A stretch of 64,000 bases of DNA from an uncultured Gemmatimonadota bacterium (GTDB lineage Bacteria; JAAXHH01). The stretch is taken from the NCBI GenBank assembly GCA_951812955.1, contig OX638340.1:2336001-2400000 (forward strand). Reading direction: 5' to 3'. Positions 1,761 through 56,774 of this stretch are shown one piece after another. The translations under genes and the position numbers were made by a program. Position 1 is the first letter of the stretch. Each line of letters opens with the position of its first letter. The notes beneath the pieces are model-generated. The model did not search any database and was not told the origin of the DNA. It saw only the letters and a list, made by a program, of their open reading frames with translations.

Positions 1761-2824
1761 CCCGCCCCTCTATCCAGTAGCATGGATTCGATCGTCTTCC
1801 TTTTCCGCGCCCGGGCGATGTCCAACGCCGTGGCGCCTTCCAGGTCCCTGATCGACGGATCCGCCCCCTGGTCGAACAGATACTGGACGAAGTCTCTACC
1901 TGCACCGCGGACGGCGGCCCAATGGAGCGCGGTGCGCCCGCGGTGATCGTCGGCGCCGTTCACACTGGCGCCGCGGTCGATCAGGAACCGGGCCATTTTG
2001 TACGAACCGTACTGCACCAGTTCGCTCAAGGTGTCGTCCACCGCGGGATGCCGGATGTCCGCTCCGGCCGCCAGCAGCATTTCCACGGAATCGTAATCCA
2101 CGCTCCACAGTGCGTTGATCAGGCCGGGATCGGGTTTCGCCCCGGCGTCCAGCAACGCCTGCATCATGGCCGGGTTTCCGATGGCGGAAGTCAACGCGGG
2201 AGGAGGCCGGTTTACTTCGGCACCCCGTACAAGGAGCAGCTTGACAATCGCCTCTAGGCGTGCCGCGGTTTCCTCATCATCCCGGCCCGCCTTGGAAGCC
2301 GTACCGTAGTTCAGGGGACGCCACCTGTTCTCGTCCACCGCGTTGACAAGGCCCGCGTCCCCGTCGAGCAGCGTCCTGACACGATCCGCCTCGCCAAGTG
2401 CCACGCTGGTGAAAATATCCCAATCCTCGATGTGCTTCCGGATCACCGGCAGAAACTGGATCTCCCCGCCCACGGCGGCGAGACAGGGCGCCGTCATGCG
2501 GCCGTGACCACCTCGCAGGTCGATACGGGCACCGTGTTCGAGGAGGACGCGGACGGTCTCGACGTGGTGCGGACCCTTGGGAATTGTCTTCTTGTGTTCC
2601 AGCACCCGGTGCAGGGGACGGTGCCGGTGGTTGTTCTTGCTCAGCACGTTGGGATCGGCGCCATGATCCAGCAGGATCCGCACGATCGCCTTGCTCCCCA
2701 CGAAGGCGGCGGTCATGATGGGCTGCCAGTGCGCGGCGGCATCGGGGTCTTCCTTCAACAGGGCTTTCACCGCGTCGAAGTCGCTGGACCAGGCGGCCTG
2801 GGTAAGTTGTTTCTCAACGGCCAT
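1757..2824 (-). CDS. ankyrin-repeat protein
   Basis: Repeated LLxxGADxN / HxAA ankyrin motifs run through the 355 aa. The ATG is at 2822-2824. Confidence 0.7.
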   Translation of the reverse strand: MAVEKQLTQAAWSSDFDAVKALLKEDPDAAAHWQPIMTAAFVGSKAIVRILLDHGADPNVLSKNNHRHRPLHRVLEHKKTIPKGPHHVETVRVLLEHGARIDLRGGHGRMTAPCLAAVGGEIQFLPVIRKHIEDWDIFTSVALGEADRVRTLLDGDAGLVNAVDENRWRPLNYGTASKAGRDDEETAARLEAIVKLLLVRGAEVNRPPPALTSAIGNPAMMQALLDAGAKPDPGLINALWSVDYDSVEMLLAAGADIRHPAVDDTLSELVQYGSYKMARFLIDRGASVNGADDHRGRTALHWAAVRGAGRDFVQYLFDQGADPSIRDLEGATALDIARARKRKTIESMLLDRGAG

Positions 2825-2848
2825 GCGTATTTTACTCCATACTCCTAA

Positions 2849-2968
2849 AGTACCTGGCAGCCACCTTGATCAATACCGTACGGCCACTTCTTCTCAGTAC
2901 CGTACGGCCATCTCGATCAGTACCTGACAGCCACTCGTCCTCAGTACCGTACGGCCACCTTGATCACC
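2849..2968. repeat. degenerate ~23-bp tandem repeat x5. The last unit encodes the C-terminus and stop of the dehydrogenase gene.
   Basis: AGTACC-initiated units begin at 2849, 2873, 2896, 2919 and 2943 (AGTACCGTACGGCCA... and AGTACCTGRCAGCCAC...). The copy at 2894-2911 reads MAVRY-stop in frame, like the real VAVRY-stop at 2941. Confidence 0.7.
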
Positions 2969-4002
2969 TCGTCGGGCGCGTGGCGCATCTTGCCGTACGC
3001 TTCGGGCAATTCGTCCGGCGTCACGACGGGATCGGGCAGTCCGTGAGGATGGAGCGTGCCGTCCCGGAAGAGGCGTACCAGGGTTTCGAGTATACGGCCT
3101 TCTTCCCAGAACAGGCCGCGCTGCGGATGGCTGCAGGCCCGCGCCGAGACGATATCGATCTGATTGAAATGGAACTCCTCGCCCAGGTACAGGCCCTTCG
3201 CGTCTCCCAGGTAGAAAGCCAGGGGAACGACCTTGCCCGCGTACCGGGTCGCGCGGATGGCTTGATTGAGGGCGTGGTAGCTTCCGCTGGCCTCGATGGT
3301 GACGTCCGCGCCGTGTTCGAGCCACCTGCGCGACGCCATGCCGAAATCGCCGACCTCACCCGGATCGACCGCCAGGGTAGCCCCGTGCTCCCGGGCCAGT
3401 GCCCGCCGCCGCGCGATCGGGTCGACCGCCACCACGTCGACCGCACCGGACAGCCGCGCCAGCTGGACCGTGAAGAGCCCGATGGCGCCCATACCGAATA
3501 CGATGACCCGCTCGCCGATCCGCACCTGTCCGTCCCGCACGGCCGCCAGGGCGAAATTGGCGGGATCCATGCAGCAAGCCGCCGCCTCGGTCAACCCCGG
3601 GAGCAGCGGCTTGAAATGACGGCCCTGGTGGACCGTCCTGAATCCCCCGTAGCCATATACCCGGTCTCCTTCCTTCAGACCTTCGACTTCCTTGCCAGCG
3701 GCCATGACCGTCCCCACCGTCGTATTGCCCACCGGCTTCCAGGTCGTCGGGTCGTAAGGGTTCAGGCGTGACCGGTCGAAGACCCTGCCTTCCTGGTCCA
3801 TGGGTACGTTCGAGTATATGGACTCACCCGTGATCTCGCCCTTTTCCGTCCCGTGTTTCGCCGCGGAGAACTCGCTGCGGACACGGACTTCATCGGGGCC
3901 GAGTTCGCCCAGCGTATAGTGTTCCCAGCGGGGTTTAAAGGCGTTGTTGCAAACCAGTTGCAGCAGTTCGATGCCATCCACGGCGGCCATTCCGTCCTCC
4001 AT
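2941..4002 (-). CDS. Zn-dependent alcohol dehydrogenase (MDR superfamily, threonine/sorbitol dehydrogenase-like)
   Basis: 353 aa with a Rossmann GxGxxG (VIVFGMGAIGLF) and an MDR catalytic domain. The start is either the ATG at 4002 or a second M at 3990. Confidence 0.7.
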   Translation of the reverse strand: MEDGMAAVDGIELLQLVCNNAFKPRWEHYTLGELGPDEVRVRSEFSAAKHGTEKGEITGESIYSNVPMDQEGRVFDRSRLNPYDPTTWKPVGNTTVGTVMAAGKEVEGLKEGDRVYGYGGFRTVHQGRHFKPLLPGLTEAAACCMDPANFALAAVRDGQVRIGERVIVFGMGAIGLFTVQLARLSGAVDVVAVDPIARRRALAREHGATLAVDPGEVGDFGMASRRWLEHGADVTIEASGSYHALNQAIRATRYAGKVVPLAFYLGDAKGLYLGEEFHFNQIDIVSARACSHPQRGLFWEEGRILETLVRLFRDGTLHPHGLPDPVVTPDELPEAYGKMRHAPDEVIKVAVRY

Positions 4003-4027
4003 TATCGCTTCTTACGTCTATGCCCAA

Positions 4028-4085
4028 CTGCCCTTCGATGTTGCGGTGATGCCAGGCTGCCCCTCGATGTTGCGGTGATGCCAGG
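4028..4085. repeat. 29-bp tandem direct repeat x2 between the GH32 stop and the dehydrogenase start
   Basis: CTGCCC(T/C)TCGATGTTGCGGTGATGCCAGG occurs twice back to back. Confidence 0.8.
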
Positions 4086-4094
4086 ACGGTTTCA

Positions 4095-5636
4095 TCAGGT
4101 CCAAATCGACTTCATACGGTATGCGTCGAGCGACAGGACCCGGCTGCCGATGCCCTGGGAGCGGAAGGACACGCCTGTGCTGTCCGGCCGGTCGGGATAG
4201 ACCCGCAGCGCGACGCACTGGCGGCCATTGGCGAATACCTCCACGACGCTTCGATCGACGAACACCCGCAGTTTCAGCGTCTCGTCCTCCTCCAGGGCCA
4301 GCTGCGCCGTCTCCGGCGCACGGGACAGAACGTCGGGTGCCGTAGACGCGTAGGAGGTGTCTACGGATAGCAGGCTCTTGCCCCGGAACCCGCGCTCCCG
4401 GAAGAAGGCGATGCGTGTGAATTCCTCCCGGTCCGGCGACCTCAGCACGTTCATCTCCACCATGGGCGACGAACCCGGGTCGATCTCCACCTCGAACTCC
4501 ATGGTGTTGCCGCCCTCCAGCGCCGGGAGCACGACCTCCTGGTTGGCCGGAAGGGCTATGGCGCCGAAATGCCTCGGCGTCTCGCGCAGCGACTTCAGAG
4601 CCTCGACCGGTTCCTGGTAAAGGTCGTCGCCGTCCGCAGTCATGCGCCGGGGCAGAGACATGATCTGGTTCCATCCCTTTGTAGGCTTGCCGTGGTTCAT
4701 GTTGAAGATAACGGCAAGACCTCCCTTCCCGTCCGGCGTGGCCGTAGGGGCGTGAAGTCCGGAAGGTTTGAACGCACCGAAATTGAACTTGGCGCCGTAG
4801 GTCACCACGAACTTGTCCCGTTCCGTGTCGTAGTCCCCGAGCAGGTACTGGGGGCCGCTCATGTGGCTGAAAAAAAGAAGGATGTGCCGGTCGCCGATGG
4901 GCCAGAAGTAGGGACAGGCGCCGTCGTCTCCCACCAGGGTGTAGTCGTCGTCCTCGACGAAGGGATGCAGGTAGGTCCAGCGGGCCAGGTCCTCGGAACG
5001 GAACAGGTAGTTCGCGCGCCTCGGCTTGCCGGCCGGGCCTTCGGGCTTCGTGCCCCCCGAGAGCGAATAGTAGACACCGTCCTTCTTCCAGATGCAAGGA
5101 TCGAAAACGTTGTACGGCGCGGGCGGACCGTCCTTTGGCGGCATGGGGATGACGGGGCCGCCGGTTACCTTCACCCAGTTGAGGAGCAGGGGATCGCTGG
5201 ATAAGGCGACCATGTTCCCCGCGACCGTGCCGTGGTACATGGCAATCACGCGGTCTTCCTCCACCAGTGCGGCGCCCGAGTAACAGCAACGCTCCGGGTT
5301 GGGATAAATGCAGTATGGCAGATCGCGCCAGCGGACGAGATCGTCCGAAATGGCATGTCCCCAGTGCTGTCGCGTGTCCTCGGGCGGATAGGCCTGGTAG
5401 AACAGGTGCCATCGTCCCTGCCAGAAGCACAGTCCGTTGGGGTCGTTGAGCATCGCCTCGGGATTCACGTAATGGTACTGCGGCCGGTGGGGATCTCCTT
5501 CGTAGCTTTTACGGGACGTGTGGAGCCGCAGCAGGAGGGGGTTGGACTCAAGCGCGGCCTCCTGCGCCTCGACGGAATCCTCTGGGAATGTGTAGTAAGG
5601 GACGAGGGATGTATAGTCTTCCATGGTGTGCTCCAT
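4095..5636 (-). CDS. glycoside hydrolase family 32 (beta-fructofuranosidase/levanase-like)
   Basis: N-terminal MLNDPNGLCFWQGRWHLFYQ matches the GH32 sucrose-box (NDPNG), and an FRSED.. block and a C-terminal beta-sandwich region follow. 513 aa, no signal peptide. Confidence 0.7.
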   Translation of the reverse strand: MEHTMEDYTSLVPYYTFPEDSVEAQEAALESNPLLLRLHTSRKSYEGDPHRPQYHYVNPEAMLNDPNGLCFWQGRWHLFYQAYPPEDTRQHWGHAISDDLVRWRDLPYCIYPNPERCCYSGAALVEEDRVIAMYHGTVAGNMVALSSDPLLLNWVKVTGGPVIPMPPKDGPPAPYNVFDPCIWKKDGVYYSLSGGTKPEGPAGKPRRANYLFRSEDLARWTYLHPFVEDDDYTLVGDDGACPYFWPIGDRHILLFFSHMSGPQYLLGDYDTERDKFVVTYGAKFNFGAFKPSGLHAPTATPDGKGGLAVIFNMNHGKPTKGWNQIMSLPRRMTADGDDLYQEPVEALKSLRETPRHFGAIALPANQEVVLPALEGGNTMEFEVEIDPGSSPMVEMNVLRSPDREEFTRIAFFRERGFRGKSLLSVDTSYASTAPDVLSRAPETAQLALEEDETLKLRVFVDRSVVEVFANGRQCVALRVYPDRPDSTGVSFRSQGIGSRVLSLDAYRMKSIWT

Positions 5637-5684
5637 GATTGGAATCAGTGGCGCCTGGCGGTTTTATATGCCTCTACCGGTTTG

Positions 5685-5806
5685 GGTTGTCTCGGCCTGG
5701 CACGGGGCTGCCTCCGCCCGTCCGGGGTTGTCTCGGCCGGTTCCAGCTGTTTCGGCCCGGCTCCGGTTGTCTCGGCCTGGCACGGGGCTGCCTCCGCCCG
5801 TCCGGG
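5685..5806. repeat. 42-bp perfect direct repeat x2 (80-bp period), upstream of GH32 and downstream of nudC
   Basis: GGTTGTCTCGGCCTGGCACGGGGCTGCCTCCGCCCGTCCGGG occurs at 5685-5726 and 5765-5806, with a partial copy between them. Confidence 0.8.
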
Positions 5807-5816
5807 TCCTGTTTCG

Positions 5817-6809
5817 TCATTGTGCGGATACCTCGGAAACCCAGGAATCGACCAGAAACCGGGCGATGGAATCCCGTCGGGGCAAGGCGTACGCCACCGA
5901 TTCGTCGCCCCATTCGCCGAAGGCCCGTACTTCCTCCGCGGTGAACCAGCGGGCATCCACGAGTTCATCGGGGTTCACCGTGATCCCGGTGGTTTCGGCC
6001 CGCGCGCGGAAACCCAGCATCAGCGAAGACGGAAAAGGCCAGGGCTGCGACGCCTGGTAGTATGCTGAGCGCACGCGAACGCCGACCTCTTCGAACACTT
6101 CCCGGGCTACCGTTTCCTCCAGACTTTCACCCGGCTCCGAGTAGCCGGAAAGGGTGGAATACACGTTTGGCGGCGGACGGTGGTGGTTTCCCAAAAGGCA
6201 TCTGGGCGGGCCTCCGCCGTCCGGGCGGAACTCCACCAGCGTTATCACCGCGGGGTCAATACGGGGAAACAGGGTCCGCCCACAGCCCTTCCGCGTACAC
6301 CGGCGACGGTGACCTCCGTCCCGGCTTTCGGTGTGGTGTCCGCAGCGGCCGCAGTGCCGGTTCTGGCGGTGCCAGTATAGCATGCCCCGCGCGTACGCCA
6401 TCAGCGCCGCGCCGCGCGTCTCGATAGACGGACCGGCACGCCACAGGTCCTGGAACGTCCCCCGGCTTCCGGCCGCTGCCGTAGCGTCCCCTTCGTCGGC
6501 ATCGGACAGGTCCGCTGCGAAAACAGCCCGGCCGTCCTCCATGCCCAGGAACACGGTTTCGCAACTCGCTACCAGCACGTCCGCGGCGGCAGGTTGCGTG
6601 CAGATGACGGCGCATGGGCGGGCCGGCGCTTCCCCGTCGCCGATCAGGTTAAGATCGCGCCAGACGGGTATGACGCGGGTATCCTCCCGGCTCAGCTGAG
6701 CGGTCAGCCAGTTCGCATCGCTCCGCCGGTCCGCCGGCCGCGCCAGCGGGACGTCCGCGAATTTCAGTACGGGATTCGTCATAAGGCACTCGCACCGAGC
6801 CGGTTGCAT
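5817..6809 (-). CDS. nudC: NAD-capped RNA hydrolase / NADH pyrophosphatase NudC (Nudix with zinc ribbon)
   Basis: A C4 zinc ribbon (CGRCGHHT...CTRKGCGRT) is followed by a Nudix box (GYSEPGESLEETVAREVFEEVGV). An alternative ATG lies at 6782. Confidence 0.75.
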   Translation of the reverse strand: MQPARCECLMTNPVLKFADVPLARPADRRSDANWLTAQLSREDTRVIPVWRDLNLIGDGEAPARPCAVICTQPAAADVLVASCETVFLGMEDGRAVFAADLSDADEGDATAAAGSRGTFQDLWRAGPSIETRGAALMAYARGMLYWHRQNRHCGRCGHHTESRDGGHRRRCTRKGCGRTLFPRIDPAVITLVEFRPDGGGPPRCLLGNHHRPPPNVYSTLSGYSEPGESLEETVAREVFEEVGVRVRSAYYQASQPWPFPSSLMLGFRARAETTGITVNPDELVDARWFTAEEVRAFGEWGDESVAYALPRRDSIARFLVDSWVSEVSAQ

Positions 6810-47157: not shown

Positions 47158-48825
47158 GTGTCAAGGGATTTCACCGGTAAAAGGGTTACCGTACTGGGCC
47201 TCGGCGTGCTATCGGGCGGCGTCGCTTCCGCGCGGTATTTCGCCGAGCGGGGCGCGGACGTCACCGTTACGGATCTGCAGCCGGCAGAAGCGCTTCGGAA
47301 GTCCATCGACGCGCTCGCGCCATGGCCGGTCCGCTACGTGCTCGGTGAGCACCTCGATGAGGACATTACCGGAGCGGACCTCGTGGTGGTCGGCCCCGCC
47401 GTCCGGGACGACAGTCCCTTCCTCCGGCTGGCGCGGGACCGGGGCATTCCGCTGACCACCGAAACGAACCTGGTCTTCGAGAACTGCAGACGGCCCATCA
47501 TCGGCATTACGGGCAGCAACGGGAAGACCACGACCACCCGCCTTATCGGGGCGATGTTCCATGCGGTCGACCCGGCTACGCTCGTGGGCGGAAACATCGG
47601 CCGGTCCGTGCTCAACGAGCTTGCGGATCTGGACGTTGCAGATGGCCAGGACGAGGCGTCAGGTCCCGGCGCAACGCCCGGAACTTGCCCTGGTGCGACG
47701 CCCGGCGCCGGAAGCACTCGGGTCAGGCCGACAGATGAAAGCCCCGTGATTCTCGAGCTGTCCAGCTTCCAGCTTCACCGCCTGGCCTGGATCCGGCAAA
47801 GCCCCGGTGTGGCCGTGGTGACGAACCTGTCTCCGAATCACCTGGACTGGCACGGTACCTTCGACGCCTACGAAGAGGCCAAGCAACACATCGTGCATTA
47901 CCAGTCGCCGGAAGACGTGGTCGTCCTGAACGCCGATGATGAGCGGCTGCGCGGGTGGGCGGCGTGCTGTCCGGGACGGATAGCCTGGTTCAGCATGGAG
48001 GGACCGGTCGAGACCGGATGCTACGTGCGGGAAGGACAGGTAGTCTACCGCGGCCCAGCGGAGGGAAGTGGCGTATCGGAAAGTAGTGACGCATCGGAAG
48101 AACACGGCCCGGTGGACGGGCACGATTCAGCGGACGGAGGCGGTCCGGCCGAACGCGGCCTGCCAGGCGAGCGCGTCGTGTGTCCCGTGGACGCCCTCCG
48201 GCTCCCGGGTCCGCACAACCGGGCCAACCTGCTGGCCGCCGTGACGGCTGCGAGCCTGTGGGGGATCCCGGCATCGGTCATCCGGTCGACGGTCGAGGCG
48301 TTCCGCGGCGTGGAACATCGCCTGGAAGAAGTGGCCGTAATCGATGGCGTGGGGTACTATAACGATTCGGCCTGCACCACGCCGGCTTCGACGATCACGG
48401 CCCTCCGGGCTTTCGACGCACCAGTGGTCCTGATCGCAGGCGGGTACGACAAGGGTATGTCGTTCGACGGCATGGCATCGGTACTCGTCCGCCGCGCCCG
48501 GGCGGCCGTCCTGATCGGCGCGACCGCGGATGCGATCGAGGCAGCGATCGGGAAAGCCGGGGTGGCTCATGCGGCTGGCGGGAAAGCCAACGCGGCTCAT
48601 GCGACCGGCGGGAAAACCGGTACAACGGACGCACTGACCATCGCCCGTTCCGATTCGCTCGATGACGCCGTGCGGCAGAGCGCCGGCCTGGCGCGGCCTG
48701 GAGACGTGGTGGTGTTGTCACCCGGCTGTGCGAGTTACGACATGTTCACCAACTACGAGGAACGCGGACGGCGGTTCAAGGAAGCCGTGGCCGCGCTGGC
48801 GCGAAACGCGGACGGTAACGCGTAG
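47158..48825 (+). CDS. murD: Mur ligase family, UDP-N-acetylmuramoylalanine--D-glutamate ligase-like
   Basis: GKRVTVLGLG...SG and GITGSNGKTTTT P-loop motifs. Low-complexity inserts (GPGATPGTCPGATPGAG; GKAGVAHAAGGKANAAHATGGKTG). GTG start. Not in a dcw cluster. Confidence 0.6.
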   Translation: MSRDFTGKRVTVLGLGVLSGGVASARYFAERGADVTVTDLQPAEALRKSIDALAPWPVRYVLGEHLDEDITGADLVVVGPAVRDDSPFLRLARDRGIPLTTETNLVFENCRRPIIGITGSNGKTTTTRLIGAMFHAVDPATLVGGNIGRSVLNELADLDVADGQDEASGPGATPGTCPGATPGAGSTRVRPTDESPVILELSSFQLHRLAWIRQSPGVAVVTNLSPNHLDWHGTFDAYEEAKQHIVHYQSPEDVVVLNADDERLRGWAACCPGRIAWFSMEGPVETGCYVREGQVVYRGPAEGSGVSESSDASEEHGPVDGHDSADGGGPAERGLPGERVVCPVDALRLPGPHNRANLLAAVTAASLWGIPASVIRSTVEAFRGVEHRLEEVAVIDGVGYYNDSACTTPASTITALRAFDAPVVLIAGGYDKGMSFDGMASVLVRRARAAVLIGATADAIEAAIGKAGVAHAAGGKANAAHATGGKTGTTDALTIARSDSLDDAVRQSAGLARPGDVVVLSPGCASYDMFTNYEERGRRFKEAVAALARNADGNA

Positions 48826-49857: not shown

Positions 49858-49939
49858 ATACATGCTGCTGCAGGTATGGTGCCTGCAGGTGTTTTATTAC
49901 GAATTTAGCAGGACAGAACCCAAAGCGAGAGGCATTTGG

Positions 49940-51079
49940 ATGAACGCTACACCCGATAACGAGGCCGTTCTGCTCATCGCGGACAGCGAAAGCAGTGCCG
50001 ACATGCTGTACGCTACGGGGCTGTTCGTGCCGGACCCTTTTACCTACCTGCGGGTGGGCGGCCGGTCGACCATCATGATGAGCGACCTGGAGATCGACCG
50101 TGCACGAGCCCAGTCGAAGGTCGATGAAGTAGTATCGCTCACGGACTACACGGACCGTGCGAAGACAAACGGAAAGGCGGACCCACGAATTGTGGACGCC
50201 GTCATCGAGTTGCTCCGGGACCGGGAAGTGAAGGGCGTCAGGGTGCCGTACGGCTTCCCCCTGGGGTACGCGGATAAACTACGGGATCGAGGATTCGAGG
50301 TGGCGGCGAAGGAGGATCCCTTCTGGGACGAGCGGCCGGTGAAATCCGACGACGAGGTGGCGGCCATCTCGGAGGTCTCCCGGTACACGGAAGACGCCCT
50401 GCGCATGGCCTTTGGATTGCTCGCCGAGGCCGATGTGAAGGACGGCGTTCTCCACGGTCCGGAAGGTCCGTTGACTTCCGAGTATATCCGTACGCGCATC
50501 CACGTATTTCTGCTGGAACGGGATTGCATCGCCCAACACACCATCGTCGCGGGGGGCGTCCAGGGATGCGACCCCCACAACGGAGGTTCCGGTCCGCTGC
50601 GCGCCGGCGAGCCCATCATCTTCGACCTCTTTCCCAAGTCCACGAAGACGGGCTATTTCGCCGACATCACCCGCACAGTGGCGAAGGGTCCGGTATCCGA
50701 TGCGTTCCGACGGCTATACGATACGGTGCTGGAAGGTCAGGAAACCGCGCTCTCCAGAGTACGGGCCGGGGTGGACGGCCAGGAGATCCACGGGGAAGTG
50801 GAACGGCTGTTCGAAAGCAGCGGCTACGAGACAGGCGCGAAGGACGGACGCATGCAGGGCTTCTTCCACGGCACGGGCCACGGCTTCGGCCTGGAGATCC
50901 ATGAACCGCCCCGCATCTCAAAGGTATCTCAGACCCTCGTTGCCGGACACGTCGTGACCGTGGAACCGGGTCTGTACTACCCCGGCTTCGGCGGCGGCGT
51001 TCGGATCGAGGACAATGTGGTCGTTACCGAGGATGGATGCGTCAACCTGACGCGGCTGGAGAAGGTATTCGAGATGTAA
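49940..51079 (+). CDS. M24-family metallopeptidase (Xaa-Pro aminopeptidase/creatinase-like)
   Basis: The ATG at 49940 has GAGAGG upstream. Pita-bread fold with metal ligands D..D..H..E..E (HGTGHGFGLEIHE). Confidence 0.7.
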   Translation: MNATPDNEAVLLIADSESSADMLYATGLFVPDPFTYLRVGGRSTIMMSDLEIDRARAQSKVDEVVSLTDYTDRAKTNGKADPRIVDAVIELLRDREVKGVRVPYGFPLGYADKLRDRGFEVAAKEDPFWDERPVKSDDEVAAISEVSRYTEDALRMAFGLLAEADVKDGVLHGPEGPLTSEYIRTRIHVFLLERDCIAQHTIVAGGVQGCDPHNGGSGPLRAGEPIIFDLFPKSTKTGYFADITRTVAKGPVSDAFRRLYDTVLEGQETALSRVRAGVDGQEIHGEVERLFESSGYETGAKDGRMQGFFHGTGHGFGLEIHEPPRISKVSQTLVAGHVVTVEPGLYYPGFGGGVRIEDNVVVTEDGCVNLTRLEKVFEM

Positions 51080-51098
51080 AGCAGACAAGCCCGATACG

Positions 51099-51716
51099 CT
51101 AAGCAATAGACGTAAGAAAACTGCGCACATCACCCAGAACGGGATGATCCAGATCCCAGTAACCGTTCTTCGCCGCCACACCTACGGATACGTGAGGGTC
51201 CGGCTTTGTAGCCAAGTATGCGTGGGCACGGGCTTTATATGGTCTGTCTACGGACAGGCCAGGTATCGCTTTGACACAATTTAAAAAGTCGTCGATACAC
51301 TGATCCTCTGGTTTGTCTTTGAAACTTTCGCATAGAAGTGTCTCCAGCATACCCGGACGATTGTCGCCAGGCAAAATCAACACCGTCACTTTCGGACTGG
51401 TATCGGTAGGAAAACCAGGTTGCGCAGGTAAAGGTAAATCTGCATTTTCCAAGGACGATCTAACACTTTGGAACGCACTCACGGCGCATGTCTCCGCATC
51501 GCGAACGATGCCGATACTTCGCACGTTTGATTCGAAACCCGACGATGCCACGATGGCACTAAGGAACCCGCGGAGTCCAGTCACGCCACCAAAATCGTGA
51601 ATCTGGATATCCACTTGTTCTAGAGACAAGTGCTCAATGAACGCTTCGAAAAAGTTAAACTCGTCCCTGCCCTCCACAAGAAGCTGGGTTTCCGATTCGA
51701 TTTGTATTCGCGCCAT
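51099..51716 (-). CDS. DUF4276/RloB-like (Toprim-like) protein, putative nuclease partner
   Basis: The start at 51716 lies 1 nt after the ATPase stop. The N-terminal LLVEGRDEFNFF resembles the DUF4276/Toprim VEGxxE motif. Low GC. Confidence 0.5.
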   Translation of the reverse strand: MARIQIESETQLLVEGRDEFNFFEAFIEHLSLEQVDIQIHDFGGVTGLRGFLSAIVASSGFESNVRSIGIVRDAETCAVSAFQSVRSSLENADLPLPAQPGFPTDTSPKVTVLILPGDNRPGMLETLLCESFKDKPEDQCIDDFLNCVKAIPGLSVDRPYKARAHAYLATKPDPHVSVGVAAKNGYWDLDHPVLGDVRSFLTSIA

Positions 51717-51717
51717 A

Positions 51718-52755
51718 TTAACGAACATCCAGGCCGTGTTGAACGGCAGCGTCGATGGACTCGTGCTCATAGGTAACGCAACGAATCATTTCCTCTACGT
51801 ATTCGAGCCTGTGCAGACTGAACCTATCGGCACTCAATGCTTCATGGGCCGCCTCCACGCATTCTTGGCTGTGAGTGGTCGCAAATACCTGTACGTGGAA
51901 AAGTTTGGCCGCTTCATCTACCGCTCGCCAGACGTCAGCAAGAACGGAGTGATGAAGGCCGTTTTCGATCTCGTCCACGAGTACGAGACCATTCGGCGTG
52001 GTGCCTATGGCAAGGACGAAGCGAGCGATTTGTGTCATGCCTTCACCCATAGATGGCAGAGGTATTAGTTCGCTCAACCCGATGTCGCCCCATATCATGG
52101 GCGAACCGTTTGAGTAAATGACTTCGATGCTTTCCAGTCTAGGTTCAACGGCTTTCATCGCACTTAAAAGTATATCTCCCCGCTTGTGCCTTCTCAGGTT
52201 TGCAAGTCTGGACGCATCATCGTGCAGGCTCCTTTTTAATCGCGGAAGGAGAATGATCGCCGGAAATTGAAAGCCATGAGTTGGTTGCTCTATTTCAAAC
52301 TTATCCCCTCTAATGTGAATGTGACTGTCGGTACCAACACCTGAATTATCGAAATACGTGAAGGTCAACGTACAATCATCAGAATAATCCATTCCCGGGC
52401 GATCTAAGGGAACTTCGGTTTGGGGCTGCCACGACGACGAAATCTGTAATTCCATTTCACCATACGTTGAATGTGTTCCTGCTATCTCGATGGTACTCCC
52501 CGTATCCAACCTGTTAAAAAGCTGATCCCAGACATTCCATCCCGATTCACCGAGGGTTCCTTGTTCCAGACCACGGACGACATGAGGATCTGATGCCATT
52601 CGCGCATTTCCAGCGCTTCCCAGCAGGAATACAGCCTCGAGCAAACTGGTCTTCCCCGAGTTGTTCTTGCCAGCAATGAGATTGATATCGCTCAGGCGGT
52701 TAACTTCGAGTCTGTTGAAGCAGCGGAAACCATGTATCCGCAAGCTTTCTATCAT
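51718..52755 (-). CDS. AAA_21/ABC-type ATPase (RloA/AbiL-i-like)
   Basis: Walker A GKNNSGKTSLLEA, Walker B LVLVDEIENGLH, and ATTHS. 345 aa. Visibly lower GC than the flanks. Confidence 0.65.
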   Translation of the reverse strand: MIESLRIHGFRCFNRLEVNRLSDINLIAGKNNSGKTSLLEAVFLLGSAGNARMASDPHVVRGLEQGTLGESGWNVWDQLFNRLDTGSTIEIAGTHSTYGEMELQISSSWQPQTEVPLDRPGMDYSDDCTLTFTYFDNSGVGTDSHIHIRGDKFEIEQPTHGFQFPAIILLPRLKRSLHDDASRLANLRRHKRGDILLSAMKAVEPRLESIEVIYSNGSPMIWGDIGLSELIPLPSMGEGMTQIARFVLAIGTTPNGLVLVDEIENGLHHSVLADVWRAVDEAAKLFHVQVFATTHSQECVEAAHEALSADRFSLHRLEYVEEMIRCVTYEHESIDAAVQHGLDVR

Positions 52756-52980
52756 TATGATTACTCCATCTGCATCAGATGTTCCGATCCGTTCGGGGAA
52801 AACAGGGACTCCTTTAAAAGATCTCTTGTAACATACATAGTACCGGATTCGCTAGAAAAACCAAATCTTTCCTGGACTATTCTACTCTGTACTGAATACC
52901 CGACTTCGCAGCGCACTTTCAGCGTCTGGAAGTGGGATCAGGCAAGGTAAGTCACGATCTTCCAGACGCCATTTCCGGCT

Positions 52981-54306
52981 TCAATCCACCAGCGCCTGGT
53001 AGATAAGCGCCCGAATGCGTTGGTGGTCGTCGAGACCCTGGGCCGGGATGACCTGCGTCATGTACGAAACCACCAGTTCTTCCGCCGGATCGACCCAATA
53101 CGTGGAGTGATACGCCCCGCCCCAGGTGTACGTCCCCGGTGAACCCGGCAACCCGCTCCAGCCGATCTCCTCCGTGATGCCGAACCCCAGGCCGAAACCG
53201 CCGCCGTCTCCCTGCCACGCGTCGTGGACGTGATCGACAGTCATGAGTTCCACGGTCTTGGGCGACAGGATTCGCACTCCGTCCAGCGTGCCCCCGCGGC
53301 GCAACGCCTCGAGGAATCGGGCATAATCTCCCGGTGTGGAGACGAGTCCCGCGCCGCCCGAGAAGCTCTTGCGCGGTCCTTCCAGATACATGCCCTGCCC
53401 GACCATGTGGCCCGGGTCGGGCGCACGCGCCATCCCATTTTCCTCCGTCACCGAGTAAACGACGGTGAGGCGGTCCGCTTTCTCAGGTGGCACGTAGAAG
53501 TGCGTATCCACCATGCCCAGCGGCTCGATAATCTCGACCCGCAGAAATTCGTCCAGCGACATCCCGGAAGCCCGCTCGATCACCACGCCCAGGATATCCG
53601 TGGCGTAGCCGTATACAAACTTCTCGCCCGGATGAGCATCCATGGGCAGATTCCCCATGCGCTCCACGGTATCGGCAATTGGTTCGTCGCGATCGGCGAA
53701 ATACCAGCCCTCTATGCCGGCCTCCTCCCAGCGCTCGGTGCCGGGGCCCCAGCCATACCCGATTCCGGCGGTGTGCGTAAGCAGGTCGCGCACCGTGATC
53801 TTGCGATCGGCGGGAACTGTCTCGAATCCCCCATCCTCATTGCTCACGGCGACGGTCGTACTGTCGAACTCGGGGATAAAGTCACCCAGGTCCTGGTCGA
53901 TCAGCAGGCGTCCTTTCTCCTGCAGTATCATCACACCCACCGAAATAACCGCCTTGGTCTGCGAAGCGATGCGGAAAAGGTCCGTAACCTCGAGCGGTTC
54001 CCCCGCCTCGCGGTCTCGATAGCCGAAGGCCCTGGCGTAAACCACATGCCCGCGCCGTCCGATCACGAGCGCGGCGCCCGGCAGCCGTTCTTCCTTGACG
54101 TACGCTTCAAGCGCCGCGTCGATGCGGGCAAGCCGTTCGGAAGAAACGCCCGCCTCCTCGGGGCTGGCCGGGGCGAAAGTCTGAGCAAAAGCCCGCGCCG
54201 CGTCGTGCGCGCAGAAGAGCAACGCCGCGAGCAGGGGAAGCAGCGGAAGCCGGTTGCGAAAGCGTCGTATTGACGACGAGGGTTTAACAGAACTCCACGT
54301 TAACAT
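52981..54306 (-). CDS. serine hydrolase (class C beta-lactamase/penicillin-binding-protein family), secreted
   Basis: Signal peptide and SxxK motif (IASQTKAV). 441 aa. Confidence 0.7.
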   Translation of the reverse strand: MLTWSSVKPSSSIRRFRNRLPLLPLLAALLFCAHDAARAFAQTFAPASPEEAGVSSERLARIDAALEAYVKEERLPGAALVIGRRGHVVYARAFGYRDREAGEPLEVTDLFRIASQTKAVISVGVMILQEKGRLLIDQDLGDFIPEFDSTTVAVSNEDGGFETVPADRKITVRDLLTHTAGIGYGWGPGTERWEEAGIEGWYFADRDEPIADTVERMGNLPMDAHPGEKFVYGYATDILGVVIERASGMSLDEFLRVEIIEPLGMVDTHFYVPPEKADRLTVVYSVTEENGMARAPDPGHMVGQGMYLEGPRKSFSGGAGLVSTPGDYARFLEALRRGGTLDGVRILSPKTVELMTVDHVHDAWQGDGGGFGLGFGITEEIGWSGLPGSPGTYTWGGAYHSTYWVDPAEELVVSYMTQVIPAQGLDDHQRIRALIYQALVD

Positions 54307-54408
54307 GACAATTAAATCCCTTCTCCACCTTGGTCATCGAAAGCGTCGCGTTCTCGAATGTCATCGTATACCACCATGATAAATACGTTCGCCGACAGTA
54401 AATAGTTG

Positions 54409-54507
54409 TTTCTTGTCCCTTTCCTGGCCTGCCGCCTGCTATACCTGGCCTGCAGCCTCGACTGCTATTCCTGCCCTGCCACCTGCTATTCCTGGCCGGA
54501 ACTGCCC
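54409..54507. repeat. ~21-26-bp degenerate tandem units x4 copying the fic 3' end, including the stop
   Basis: TTCCTGGCCTGCCGCCTGCTA-like units. CTATTCCTGGCC is the real stop (54486). CTATTCCTGCCC and CTATACCTGGCC are the upstream copies. Confidence 0.7.
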
Positions 54508-55433
54508 AATCTTTGATCCGTAGGTGTGCTTCGAGGCCGATCCTGTCCCCGGTTATCGAATGCCCTCCCGATCTTCCAGACCCCTTTCTCACGAAATGCG
54601 GGAATGGACTGCCGGCGGGCGGCGTTGGTTACGGCGGGCGCCGACAGGCCGTTCTGCCTGATGTAGTCCGAAAGCCGGATAATTTCTGCGCCTTTCAAGT
54701 AGCTCAACCACTTGTGCAGTGATTCCATTAGTCCAAGGAATACGATATTTTCCATAGCCTTAGTCGATGCGTTATCGCCATATTCCCTGAACGCCTGGTA
54801 GTACCTTTCCTTTTCGGAATTTCGAATGATGATACGCGGCAGACCGAGTTGCAGAAGCTGGAAATTCATGATGACCCGTCCCAGTCTGCCGTTTCCGTCA
54901 CAGAAGGGATGTATATATTCGAAAGCCAGATGAAAAAGTGCGATCTTATCCAGAAAGTAGGAATCCAGGTCGCTGACATAGTCGATCAGGAGATTGTCCA
55001 TCATGCGTTCCACGTGCTCGGGCTCGGGCGCAATATGCGTGCCCACTCGCACGTATTCGCCTTTCTGTCGGAATCGTCCGGCGATGGAATCATCGATGCC
55101 GCCAATCAGCATCTGATGGAATCCCAGGATAAGGGTCTCACTCAACTCGCTGTCTTTCGCCCTGCTACGTTTGTATTCCATGACCCGGGCAAGGTTCTTC
55201 GCCTCGTAGACTTCACGGATGGATACGTTGCGGGAGAGCATCTGTTCCAACAGGATCCGCTCTGTTTCTTCGAGCGACAGCGTGGAATTCTCGATGGCGT
55301 TCGAGTTGTATACGCCCTCGGGTATCTCAACCTCGTCGATCATGGACAAGAGCGAGTCCTTGCCCATTCGCAAGATGTCGAATTCACGCTTCAGCGATCG
55401 TATGCGGTTTTTCATTGGTCGTGTAGAGGGCAT
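54486..55433 (-). CDS. fic: Fic family protein (class II, autoinhibited AMPylator-type)
   Basis: HPFCDGNGRLGR Fic motif and an N-terminal SNAIEN inhibitory motif ((S/T)xxxE(G/N)). The start is at MPSTRP (55433). The AT-rich promoter region at 55434-55560 has low GC. Confidence 0.7.
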   Translation of the reverse strand: MPSTRPMKNRIRSLKREFDILRMGKDSLLSMIDEVEIPEGVYNSNAIENSTLSLEETERILLEQMLSRNVSIREVYEAKNLARVMEYKRSRAKDSELSETLILGFHQMLIGGIDDSIAGRFRQKGEYVRVGTHIAPEPEHVERMMDNLLIDYVSDLDSYFLDKIALFHLAFEYIHPFCDGNGRLGRVIMNFQLLQLGLPRIIIRNSEKERYYQAFREYGDNASTKAMENIVFLGLMESLHKWLSYLKGAEIIRLSDYIRQNGLSAPAVTNAARRQSIPAFREKGVWKIGRAFDNRGQDRPRSTPTDQRLGSSGQE

Positions 55434-55597
55434 ATAAGTTAAATTAGTATATTCACTTATTATTGTCAAAATAATGTGAATAATCTCGTACATATCGTTA
55501 TCATTAACTAATTTATTAGCAATATAGGTTAACATACTCCCAATCCTCCCGACCCGAGGCCCCGGGGGGATTTCCACCGGAGCGGAGGGCCATCCCC

Positions 55598-55653
55598 GGG
55601 GCATCCTCGAGGCCCTCCAAAGCGCCATCACTGGGGCATCCTCGAGGCCCTCC
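55598..55653. repeat. 21-bp GC-rich direct repeat x2 (GGGGCATCCTCGAGGCCCTCC, 35-bp period)
   Basis: Upstream of the GNAT gene at 55770. Confidence 0.75.
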
Positions 55654-55769
55654 CAGGCCGGGCTCCTCTCAATCCGATCCCGGTTCCATGCATCCAGCCG
55701 CGTGTTAAATCAGCCGCATGTTAATCAAGTAACCCGACAAAAAAGGCCATCCACCCAGGACCCGTTTCC

Positions 55770-56774
55770 ATGAAGATCATCACCCTCGAAATCGACCAGG
55801 CGGCTGCTCTGGCGGACTTCTACAACGAGCAATTCGCGGCCATGCCGTATTGCTATCCCGTCACGGAAGATGAATTCGAAACCGGTGTCTGGTGGCATGA
55901 GGAGCGGGACGGCGAGCCGTACGAAGACCTGTCGGACGAGTCGTTTCTAGTGGTGGAAGACGACGGCAATGTCGCGGGTTTTGCCCACGTGGCCGTCTGC
56001 CGCAAGGGCGAGGAGGACCACCGCATCGGCCTCCATCCGATCGAGGAGCTGTTGAAGGACCGGATCGGCCTTATCCGCTTTTTTCACTACCGGGCCGGTG
56101 CGCGGCCGGCAGGCCAGGCGCTCCTGGAAGCGGCGGAGGCCCACTTGCGAAGCTTCGGCATCGACCAGATTCGCGCCTTCAGTTACTTCGGATACCGGTT
56201 CTACCGCTTCTGTCACGCGTTCCAGTCCGACCGGATGGGCCACGTGGGCGCGCTGCTCAGTATGAACGACTACCGCATAACCCGGGGTATCATCCTCCTC
56301 GAGCTCCCGGACTTTGACGTACCGGATCCCGTATTGCCGGACGCCGGTGTGACCACGTGCTTCGAAATTCAGGCCGGGCGCGGCAGGCTGCCCAACATGG
56401 CATTCCAGCTTTTCCGCGGAGATCAGTGCATTGGCCAGGGATTCGCCCAGTCGCTAGGGGATTTCTGCCGGTCGTCCCAGGCGCAGGAAACCTTCTACAT
56501 ACCCTGGTTCTCCATCGAAGGAAGTCCGGTGGGAGGGCGCGTCAGCGAGGGGGAGCAGGGCAAGGGATTCGGACGGTACATGATGGAGGTCCTGCTGCGG
56601 GAGATGCGCCAGCTCGGTTACCGCCACGCCACCACCCAGGCGAACACGGGCAGTCCCCGGCCCATTCTTCTGTACACGAATATGGGATACGAGGTAGTGG
56701 ACACCAACTACCAGTATTTCAAGGACCTGGAGAAGGAAATCCCGCTGGAGGTTTTTAAAGAGGTCGGGTTTTAG
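55770..56774 (+). CDS. GNAT-family acetyltransferase (two-domain)
   Basis: C-terminal [17 protein letters not shown] is a GNAT motif A. 334 aa. Confidence 0.6.

Follow-up and report, generated by a model that had tools for sequence, protein, structure and literature searches.

Pairs of an ATP-binding cassette (ABC) ATPase and a Toprim protein or domain, as in Old, Gabija, PARIS, AbiL, and the retron effectors, are a major theme of bacterial immunity. In PARIS, a hexamer of AriA sequesters AriB; sensing of phage proteins leads to the ATP-dependent release of AriB, which then dimerizes and cleaves tRNA-Lys (PMC11464382, PMC12409363). The characterized OLD proteins of classes 1–3 carry both domains fused in one chain (PMC10568477), and OLD Toprim domains are two-metal nucleases (PMC6755086). 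The plan of ATPase plus Toprim is also common to AbiL, MADS3-4, and RloAB. The survey of AAA15/21 ATPases in the PARIS paper annotated TOPRIM-Old, DUF4435, RloB, and DUF4276 partners; DUF3226 was not among them. A DUF3226 protein, PH0156, is the top HHpred match of a lactococcal AriB (PMC11381338). Here we describe a gene pair that couples an ABC ATPase with a DUF3226 protein. The pair lies in a 64,000-nucleotide stretch of DNA (the window) from an uncultured Gemmatimonadota bacterium (GenBank assembly GCA_951812955.1, contig OX638340.1, positions 2,336,001 to 2,400,000 of the forward strand); coordinates given without a locus name refer to this window. By analogy with the systems above, we lean toward the view that this is a horizontally exchanged, two-gene "split OLD-like" conflict module, in which the ATPase would gate a DUF3226 nuclease that cuts tRNA or DNA and aborts infection.

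The two genes are adjacent on the minus strand, with the ATPase gene transcribed first and the small gene second. Gene A (51718..52755) encodes a head-only ABC ATPase of the SMC/Rad50/OLD class (AAA_21/AAA_15), and GKNNSGKTSLLEA, LVLVDEIENGLH, and ATTHS are all present in its 345-residue open reading frame. For gene B, the mechanically called frame is 51099..51770 on the minus strand (223 residues), while alignment of 51 homologues places the true start at MARIQ, at 51716, to give a protein of 205 residues (51099..51716) with a predicted OLD-type Toprim domain and a short helical domain, a predicted metal-dependent nuclease effector. The junction (51714..51720, minus strand) reads CGT TAA T ATG GCG, so that exactly 1 nucleotide separates the stop codon of the ATPase gene from the start codon of the small gene. 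This spacing implies that the pair is co-transcribed and probably translationally coupled. Similarly tight junctions occur at distant loci, with a 2-nucleotide gap in L001–L004 and overlapping or abutting genes on plasmids. A first-pass annotation of the window, made from the letters alone, had described an ATPase with Walker A, Walker B, and ATTHS motifs, a 1-nucleotide spacing, a downstream protein of about 205 residues, a position between an M24 peptidase gene and a beta-lactamase-family gene, and a dip in GC content, and all of this is borne out by the present analysis. The neighbors are a Peptidase_M24 gene (49862..51079, plus strand, E = 3e-45), which lies downstream of the pair and converges on it, and a Beta-lactamase-family gene (52981..54306, minus strand, E = 3e-67). 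The GC content is 0.47–0.52 over 51000–53000 and 0.60–0.68 on either side; the pair itself stands at 0.500 and the remainder of the window at 0.621.

The small protein belongs to the family DUF3226 (PF11536). The Pfam match has an E value of 5.4e-28 and a score of 98.6 bits against a cut-off of 27, and residues 11–203 cover profile positions 3–205 of 208. A sub-threshold match to OLD-like_TOPRIM spans residues 10–52. The first-pass annotation had read this protein as a DUF4276/RloB-like Toprim: the Toprim part of that claim stands, by fold and by motif, but the family is DUF3226, and LLVEGRDEFNFF is a Toprim motif. Neither DUF4276 nor RloB (PF13707) gave a Pfam match at E <= 0.01; DUF4435 gave no Pfam match and AriB no PADLOC match even at E <= 10, and AbiLii likewise had no PADLOC match at E <= 10. 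The only PADLOC matches of the small protein, even at E <= 10, are to the PDC-M38B models PDLC04624 (4.4e-12) and PDLC04623 (4.6e-10). NCBIfam contained no match for it. A sequence search of the PDB with the small protein alone returned just spurious haloalkane-dehalogenase matches (E about 0.09), a search with a profile returned nothing significant, and structural relatives came from fold comparison only. Alignments of the family profiles with phage P2 Old by hhalign were non-significant (probability 0.9% and 22%), with only the LLVEGxxExN and Walker B stretches aligned.

The AlphaFold2 model of the small protein, built on the 51 homologues, is confident (pLDDT 92, pTM 0.89). Strands and helices alternate in its beta-alpha core, which has four strands, and the C-terminal part is helical. 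The first-pass annotation had proposed structure prediction as the check on its Toprim reading, and the predicted structure indeed has that fold, a parallel sheet of four beta strands set between helices. Toprim domains are marked by a Glu after beta1, a Gly after beta2, and a DxD/E motif after beta3 (PMC6755086). In the model these hallmarks are placed as expected and are invariant in the alignment: E15 at the end of strand 10–14, G43/G44 after strand 37–41, and D73-A-E75 at the end of strand 67–73. D18, E125/T126 (start of helix 124–131), K161 (helix 159–168), and R163 are also invariant. In BpOLD, E404, T506/E508, and K562 also take part, and T506/E508 open the first helix of the helical domain (PMC6755086). 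Judged by motif order and secondary structure, we infer that D18, E125/T126, and K161 are the counterparts of these metal-B and lysine residues. Since an OLD-type Toprim domain with an apparently complete two-metal site is predicted, the small protein is probably a nuclease.

Gene A is predicted to encode an active ABC ATPase, with every nucleotide motif kept: Walker A (G29-KT36S), a signature-like M236-G-E-G239, Walker B (D261-E262), and an H-loop (T294-H295). Walker A, MGEG, the Walker B DE, and TTHS are invariant across 54 ATPase homologues, in which residues 46–206 are far more variable. Pfam assigns the protein to AAA_21 (4e-20) and AAA_15 (9e-19), and also to SMC_N. NCBIfam gave N-terminal P-loop matches only, far below the cut-offs, with MAD3 covering the first 48 residues. 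The best PADLOC match is AbiLi (PDLC02336, E = 3.1e-53; residues 1–345 on profile positions 1–340 of 340), followed by five PDC-M38A models (PDLC04611 at 4.9e-49, then 04608, 04607, 04609, and 04610). The match to AriA is weaker and split into two stretches (5.6e-24), and those to NsnB, GajA, and PtuA are weaker and partial. In the structural model (pLDDT 84), the ABC ATPase consists of a head only and carries a beta-rich insert (50–175) and two disordered loops; its closest folds are the SMC/Rad50 heads and the defense ATPases PtuA, retron Eco7 ATPase, and AriA. The ratio of nonsynonymous to synonymous substitution rates (dN/dS) is 0.10–0.22 for both genes in four comparisons (flanks: 0.07–0.20), which indicates purifying selection and functional genes. 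We also considered whether the variable middle of the ATPase might be a sensor surface under positive selection; omega is 0.13–0.26 there and 0.11–0.34 elsewhere, and the idea was rejected.

In its fold, the effector resembles OLD and GajA more closely than it does AriB, and the ATPase lacks the arm of AriA. Both observations speak for an alternative that we regard as unlikely: a constitutive OLD/Gabija-like holoenzyme, in which the bound Toprim subunit cuts invading or replicating DNA and nucleotide binding tunes the activity, with no release step and no tRNA target. The gene organization fits this explanation less well. The characterized OLD proteins are fused, whereas the top 150 of 3,883 DUF3226 family representatives (50% clusters) are standalone proteins of about 200 residues without a single ATPase fusion, so selection seems to favor physically separable partners. 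The holoenzyme would also be missing a conserved partner such as GajB or UvrD: among the neighbor families we found no helicase that is conserved across loci, and no third conserved gene of any kind (the largest neighbor cluster is present at 18 of 78 loci, and its position varies). As an aside, the top match of the representative search, P0241 (443 residues), contains two DUF3226 stretches; these may have arisen by tandem duplication or by fusion of the nuclease, or the gene call may be a merged one.

Both genes belong to large families, with more than 1,400 (ATPase) and more than 5,000 (small protein) homologous 90% clusters. We scanned one genome per species from 185,579 species with two subfamily-specific peptide patterns, which found 86 loci, of which the best 80 were kept. 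At 79 of these 80 species-representative loci, the DUF3226 gene is immediately preceded by the ATPase gene in the same orientation. In the exception, L077, a transposase-like reading frame has cost the locus its ATPase and the N-terminal VEG motif, and the copy is truncated; a small number of further copies carry frameshifts or interruptions. Two loci hold a second, highly diverged ATPase plus DUF3226 pair (25–34% identity) in the same gene order (L017, 6006–6943, minus strand; L038, 4307–6021, plus strand). Thus, the two genes are one obligate, self-contained unit. At L017 and L038 the second pair is 3–5 kb from the first, an arrangement of tandem paralogous modules.

All 80 kept loci, which represent a subfamily of more than 47% identity, come from metagenome-assembled genomes of uncultured organisms. 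These include Latescibacterota, Binatia, Poribacteria, Entotheonella, Caldilineaceae, Dehalococcoidia, Nitrospirales, Vicinamibacterales, and Limisphaerales, with isolate names such as "APA_bin", "IRC4_bin", "SB0664_bin", and "Plut_". Such phyla and names are typical of sponge and coral holobionts. Identity is 50–67% over at least 10 phyla, and the distribution is patchy. Judged from phyla and isolate names, this pattern suggests that the subfamily spread inside the sponge/coral habitat.

The pair behaves as an exchangeable cassette at a fixed site. In 57 of 60 genomes it is poorer in GC than the flanks of its host, with a mean difference of 6.2 points, and within its own clade (L005–L012 and L094) it occupies the same site. 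In L093 the flanking genes are 94–96% identical to those of the window, and the homology halts at 51078 and restarts at 52981. Between these breakpoints L093 carries another cassette of 1.18 kb and 44.7% GC (L093 6339–7221, minus strand), coding for a 53-residue lysine-rich protein and then a 244-residue protein with hydrophobic, membrane-like segments. Neither the 244-residue nor the 53-residue protein has a significant Pfam match or a PADLOC match; the cassette may be another defense or toxin pair. L095 contains a truncated form of it (3597–4425) with identical breakpoints, and the junction alignments with L093 and L095 depart immediately past the stop codon of the M24 gene. In the more distant L097 and L098, whose M24 proteins are 66% identical, a transketolase gene follows 30 bp past M24, and the region from 51080 to about 56770 is absent, that is, the pair, the beta-lactamase-family gene, the Fic gene, and a GNAT acetyltransferase gene. 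The 5.7-kb stretch 51080–56770 is a lineage-specific variable region. Two further variants of the locus were seen. In L005, a 1,390-residue protein of leucine-rich (LRR) and Big_2 repeats (2006–6178, minus strand), which resembles the eukaryote-like repeat proteins of symbionts, lies between the beta-lactamase-family gene and the pair. L012 (7827–14336) shows a local rearrangement or duplication in the order Fic, pair, M24 fragment, beta-lactamase, Fic fragment, and full M24, with Fic directly upstream of the pair.

The divergence of the cassette is decoupled from that of the backbone. Compared with L006 and L007, the flanks show 95–97% nucleotide identity and the tract from about 50850 to 52980 just 85–91% in binned comparison. 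The synonymous divergence (dS) of the pair is 0.38–0.40 against L006, with 0.10–0.24 for the flanks; against L010 the relation is reversed, and the dS of the pair is below that of the flanks. Binned identity and dS together mark about 50850..52980 as a recombination tract with a history of its own and indicate that related lineages have exchanged alleles of the cassette. At the cassette ends we found no integrase and no meaningful direct or inverted repeats, and there is no tRNA gene in the window. The decoupled divergence, together with the absence of these features, points to homologous recombination via the core genes as the route of exchange. What the first-pass annotation had called an island is thus better described as a 1.9-kb cassette at a recombination hotspot, with neither integrase nor tRNA gene nor flanking repeats.

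The same observations bear on the idea of a housekeeping pair for DNA repair or recombination, in which a RecF/Rad50-like ATPase and a Toprim nuclease would serve the host chromosome. The first-pass annotation had named a uniform GC profile with conserved synteny as the sign of such a role; GC dips at the pair, and synteny is limited to a narrow clade and broken by the L093 cassette. The resemblance of the ATPase to RecF/Rad50/SMC heads, the purifying selection on both genes, and the synteny within the immediate clade would all suit a repair function. This reading nevertheless deserves hardly any credence, since the pair comes and goes, or is replaced by another cassette, between near-identical backbones, has GC consistently under that of its host, and is scattered over more than 10 phyla in variable neighborhoods. 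In enterobacteria, moreover, it is plasmid-borne and, in E. coli, rare.

The enterobacterial versions reside on ColE1-type plasmids of 4,693 bp (E. coli, Klebsiella) and 3,793 bp (Salmonella), on which an ATPase plus DUF3226 pair, again with the ATPase gene first, is essentially the sole cargo. These pairs are homologous to that of the window (ATPase, E = 1e-40; DUF3226, E = 6e-20), and PADLOC classes them identically, as PDC-M38. At 26% identity the plasmid DUF3226 protein keeps the proposed catalytic residues in VEGxDDF, IIDADE, GAIEDL, and KAKV. In E. coli the module occurs in 8 of 5,426 complete genomes, every time on that plasmid. The pair is therefore an accessory, mobile module. Carriage as almost the only cargo of 3.8–4.7-kb plasmids, and persistence at a single chromosomal site across related lineages, are also what one would expect of a toxin–antitoxin or addiction module, in which the Toprim nuclease is the toxin, the ATPase its restraint, and the benefit the stability of the carrier DNA, with no dedicated anti-phage role. 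The Pfam text for AAA_21 ("putative AbiEii toxin, Type IV TA system", where TA stands for toxin–antitoxin) and the absence of any intact orphan DUF3226 gene lacking the ATPase among the 80 loci agree with this explanation. We nevertheless hold it to be quite improbable as the full account. The ATPase is a complete enzyme in which every catalytic motif is invariant, as would be unneeded in a simple antitoxin, and the swapping of cassettes at one site runs contrary to strong addiction. Many abortive-infection systems, including PARIS, are in any case toxin–antitoxin-like, so that this rival and a defense role are not mutually exclusive.

A role in defense against phages or other mobile DNA remains our best reading of the pair, and restriction–modification and toxin–antitoxin genes are frequent in its neighborhoods. 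In L001 the pair is accompanied by a type I restriction–modification system and by SLFN/AlbA_2, HicAB, Fic, and HIRAN genes, and in L002–L004 by N6_N4 methylase, TIR, and ResIII genes. Among 149 immediate neighbors, the restriction–modification components comprise Methylase_S (6), N6_Mtase (5), N6_N4_Mtase (8), HSDR_N (3), ResIII (5), and SWI2_SNF2 (3), and PIN, HicB, NYN, transposase, and reverse transcriptase genes also occur.

In molecular terms, we envisage the following course for the split OLD-like module. The product of gene A, a compact ABC ATPase of about 39 kDa, would dimerize on ATP, and that of gene B would be a DUF3226 Toprim nuclease of 23 kDa whose two-metal active site is complete. 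The two are predicted to form a complex in which, by analogy with AriA and AriB of PARIS, the ATPase would serve as sensor and gate and keep the nuclease inactive. An infection cue would then lead to ATP binding or hydrolysis, which would release or activate the nuclease, and cleavage of nucleic acid, either tRNA or DNA, would halt the infected cell or the invader. We infer the complex formation, the defense function, the trigger, the choice between release and activation within the complex, and the substrate.

Several points weigh against this proposal. The pair is retained at one site across several species-level lineages of its clade, which is often not so for defense genes. Many of the 149 immediate neighbors are housekeeping genes, and the association with defense genes, given as raw counts, is suggestive and not a statistical one. 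We found no relatives in a phage genome collection or in viral contigs, whereas PARIS and Old are often borne by phages or satellites. The mapping of the putative catalytic residues follows motif order and secondary structure. In the literature searched we found neither a mention of DUF3226 or PDC-M38 nor an experiment on a DUF3226 module. Finally, the analogy with PARIS has its limits: AriA is a 55-kDa protein with a hexamer-forming arm, whereas the ATPase described here has 345 residues (about 39 kDa) and no arm, and AriB has about 300 residues, some 100 more than the 205 of the small protein. With no AriA arm and a short gene B, the PARIS-style propeller with effector release may not apply.

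Around the two genes, the cassette is delimited by two short noncoding regions. The 225-bp leader of gene A (52756..52980, minus strand) is low in GC and belongs to the cassette, since homology to L093 restarts only at 52981; a promoter is expected within it. It contains a GGAG ribosome-binding site (52764–52767, minus strand) 8 nucleotides ahead of the ATG. A promoter scan revealed no sigma-70-like site in this leader, and the leader folds no better than shuffled sequence (z -0.8). M24 and gene B converge, and the 19 bp that separate their stop codons (51080..51098, no strand assigned) form the right-hand boundary, next to the end of the homology to L093 and L095 at 51078. A scan of this spacer for terminator-like hairpins found none, and no Rfam match at E <= 1 indicates a structured RNA in or beside the cassette.

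Two other genes of the window deserve mention. A Fic-domain gene (54486–55631, minus strand; Pfam Fic, 2e-20) forms a second low-GC block (about 0.50–0.51) and matches the PADLOC candidate PDC-S04 (3.7e-36) and SoFic (6.8e-30). It is 1.7 kb from the pair, with only the beta-lactamase-family gene of normal GC between them, and the Fic block is conserved in close relatives; a Fic gene also adjoins the pair in the unrelated locus L001. A MurD-like ligase gene (47158–48825, plus strand) encodes low-complexity inserts rich in Gly, Pro, Ala, and Thr, for example GPGATPGTCPGATPGAGS. Its conservation is the lowest among the flanking core genes, at 67–82% identity as opposed to 84–97% for its neighbors.

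The architecture of this locus is in itself ordinary, a variant on the known theme of a split ATPase and Toprim, and the family is catalogued but uncharacterized. If the pair proved to be merely another PARIS-like system, the gain would be incremental. We found no literature on the DUF3226-partnered branch despite its 3,883 clusters at 50% identity and the crystal structure of PH0156 from 2007, and the locus yields a hypothesis that names individual active-site residues (E15, D18, D73, E75, E125, and K161). It also yields natural evidence that two genes are self-sufficient, in the form of replacement at identical breakpoints and of 4.7-kb plasmids with the pair as main cargo. The version on the ColE1 plasmids of E. 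coli and Klebsiella offers a direct experimental handle. As the smallest split-OLD pair in this analysis, it could reveal the minimal needs for the gating of a Toprim nuclease by an ATPase. A more far-reaching and rather doubtful possibility, which we put forward tentatively, is that DUF3226 modules are a distinct minimal split-OLD immune class, built from a 39-kDa sensor ATPase and a 23-kDa Toprim effector, with a trigger and a nucleic-acid target unlike those of PARIS, Gabija, and Old, and that the subfamily of more than 50% identity has been passed among at least 10 phyla in sponge and coral holobionts. If this were true, the DUF3226 subfamily would be a marker of cross-phylum gene flow and phage pressure within that habitat.

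How does the pair relate to the systems described so far? The first-pass annotation had recognized an architecture of the AbiL, PARIS, and OLD type, and we do find an ABC/AAA_21 ATPase with a small protein of Toprim fold encoded behind it. It had also held that the pair could not be assigned to a named family; this no longer applies, as both proteins match PDC-M38 models and the ATPase matches the AbiLi model over its full length. A match to component A and a match to component B, adjacent on one strand and in the order A then B, are the PADLOC criteria for PDC-M38, a computational candidate in PADLOC-DB v2.0.0 (2023), and by the available criteria the pair does not differ from it. The founding DUF3226 structure is that of PH0156 from Pyrococcus horikoshii (PDB 2P62, 2007), a structural-genomics "hypothetical protein" with 15% identity to the small protein.

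Four other assignments were considered and set aside. AbiL is likewise a two-gene system of an ATPase and an OLD-like Toprim protein (PMC13064643), and the ATPase of the pair is AbiLi-like. The partner in AbiL and in Campylobacter RloAB, however, is AbiLii/RloB-like, whereas the small protein matches no such model, and the pair was not filed as AbiL for this reason. PARIS, a system activated by phage anti-restriction proteins, was dismissed because its effector AriB is a DUF4435 protein rather than a DUF3226 protein and because the ATPase is too small and armless, and the DUF4276 type, with a partner as in MADS3-4, because that family gave no Pfam match within the threshold stated above. With the OLD family (P2 Old in class 1, Gabija GajA in class 2, and the retron-associated class 3) the pair shares the class of its ABC ATPase, and, judged by motif order and secondary structure, it may also share the OLD-type Toprim with its helical domain and the set of metal-binding and lysine residues. 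It was not filed as an OLD nuclease, as the OLD domains are fused and those of the pair are divided between two polypeptides, and as it is accompanied neither by a UvrD/GajB helicase, as in class 2 and Gabija, nor by a reverse transcriptase, as in class 3. The pair is distantly homologous to all of these systems and, by analogy, would function in a similar way.

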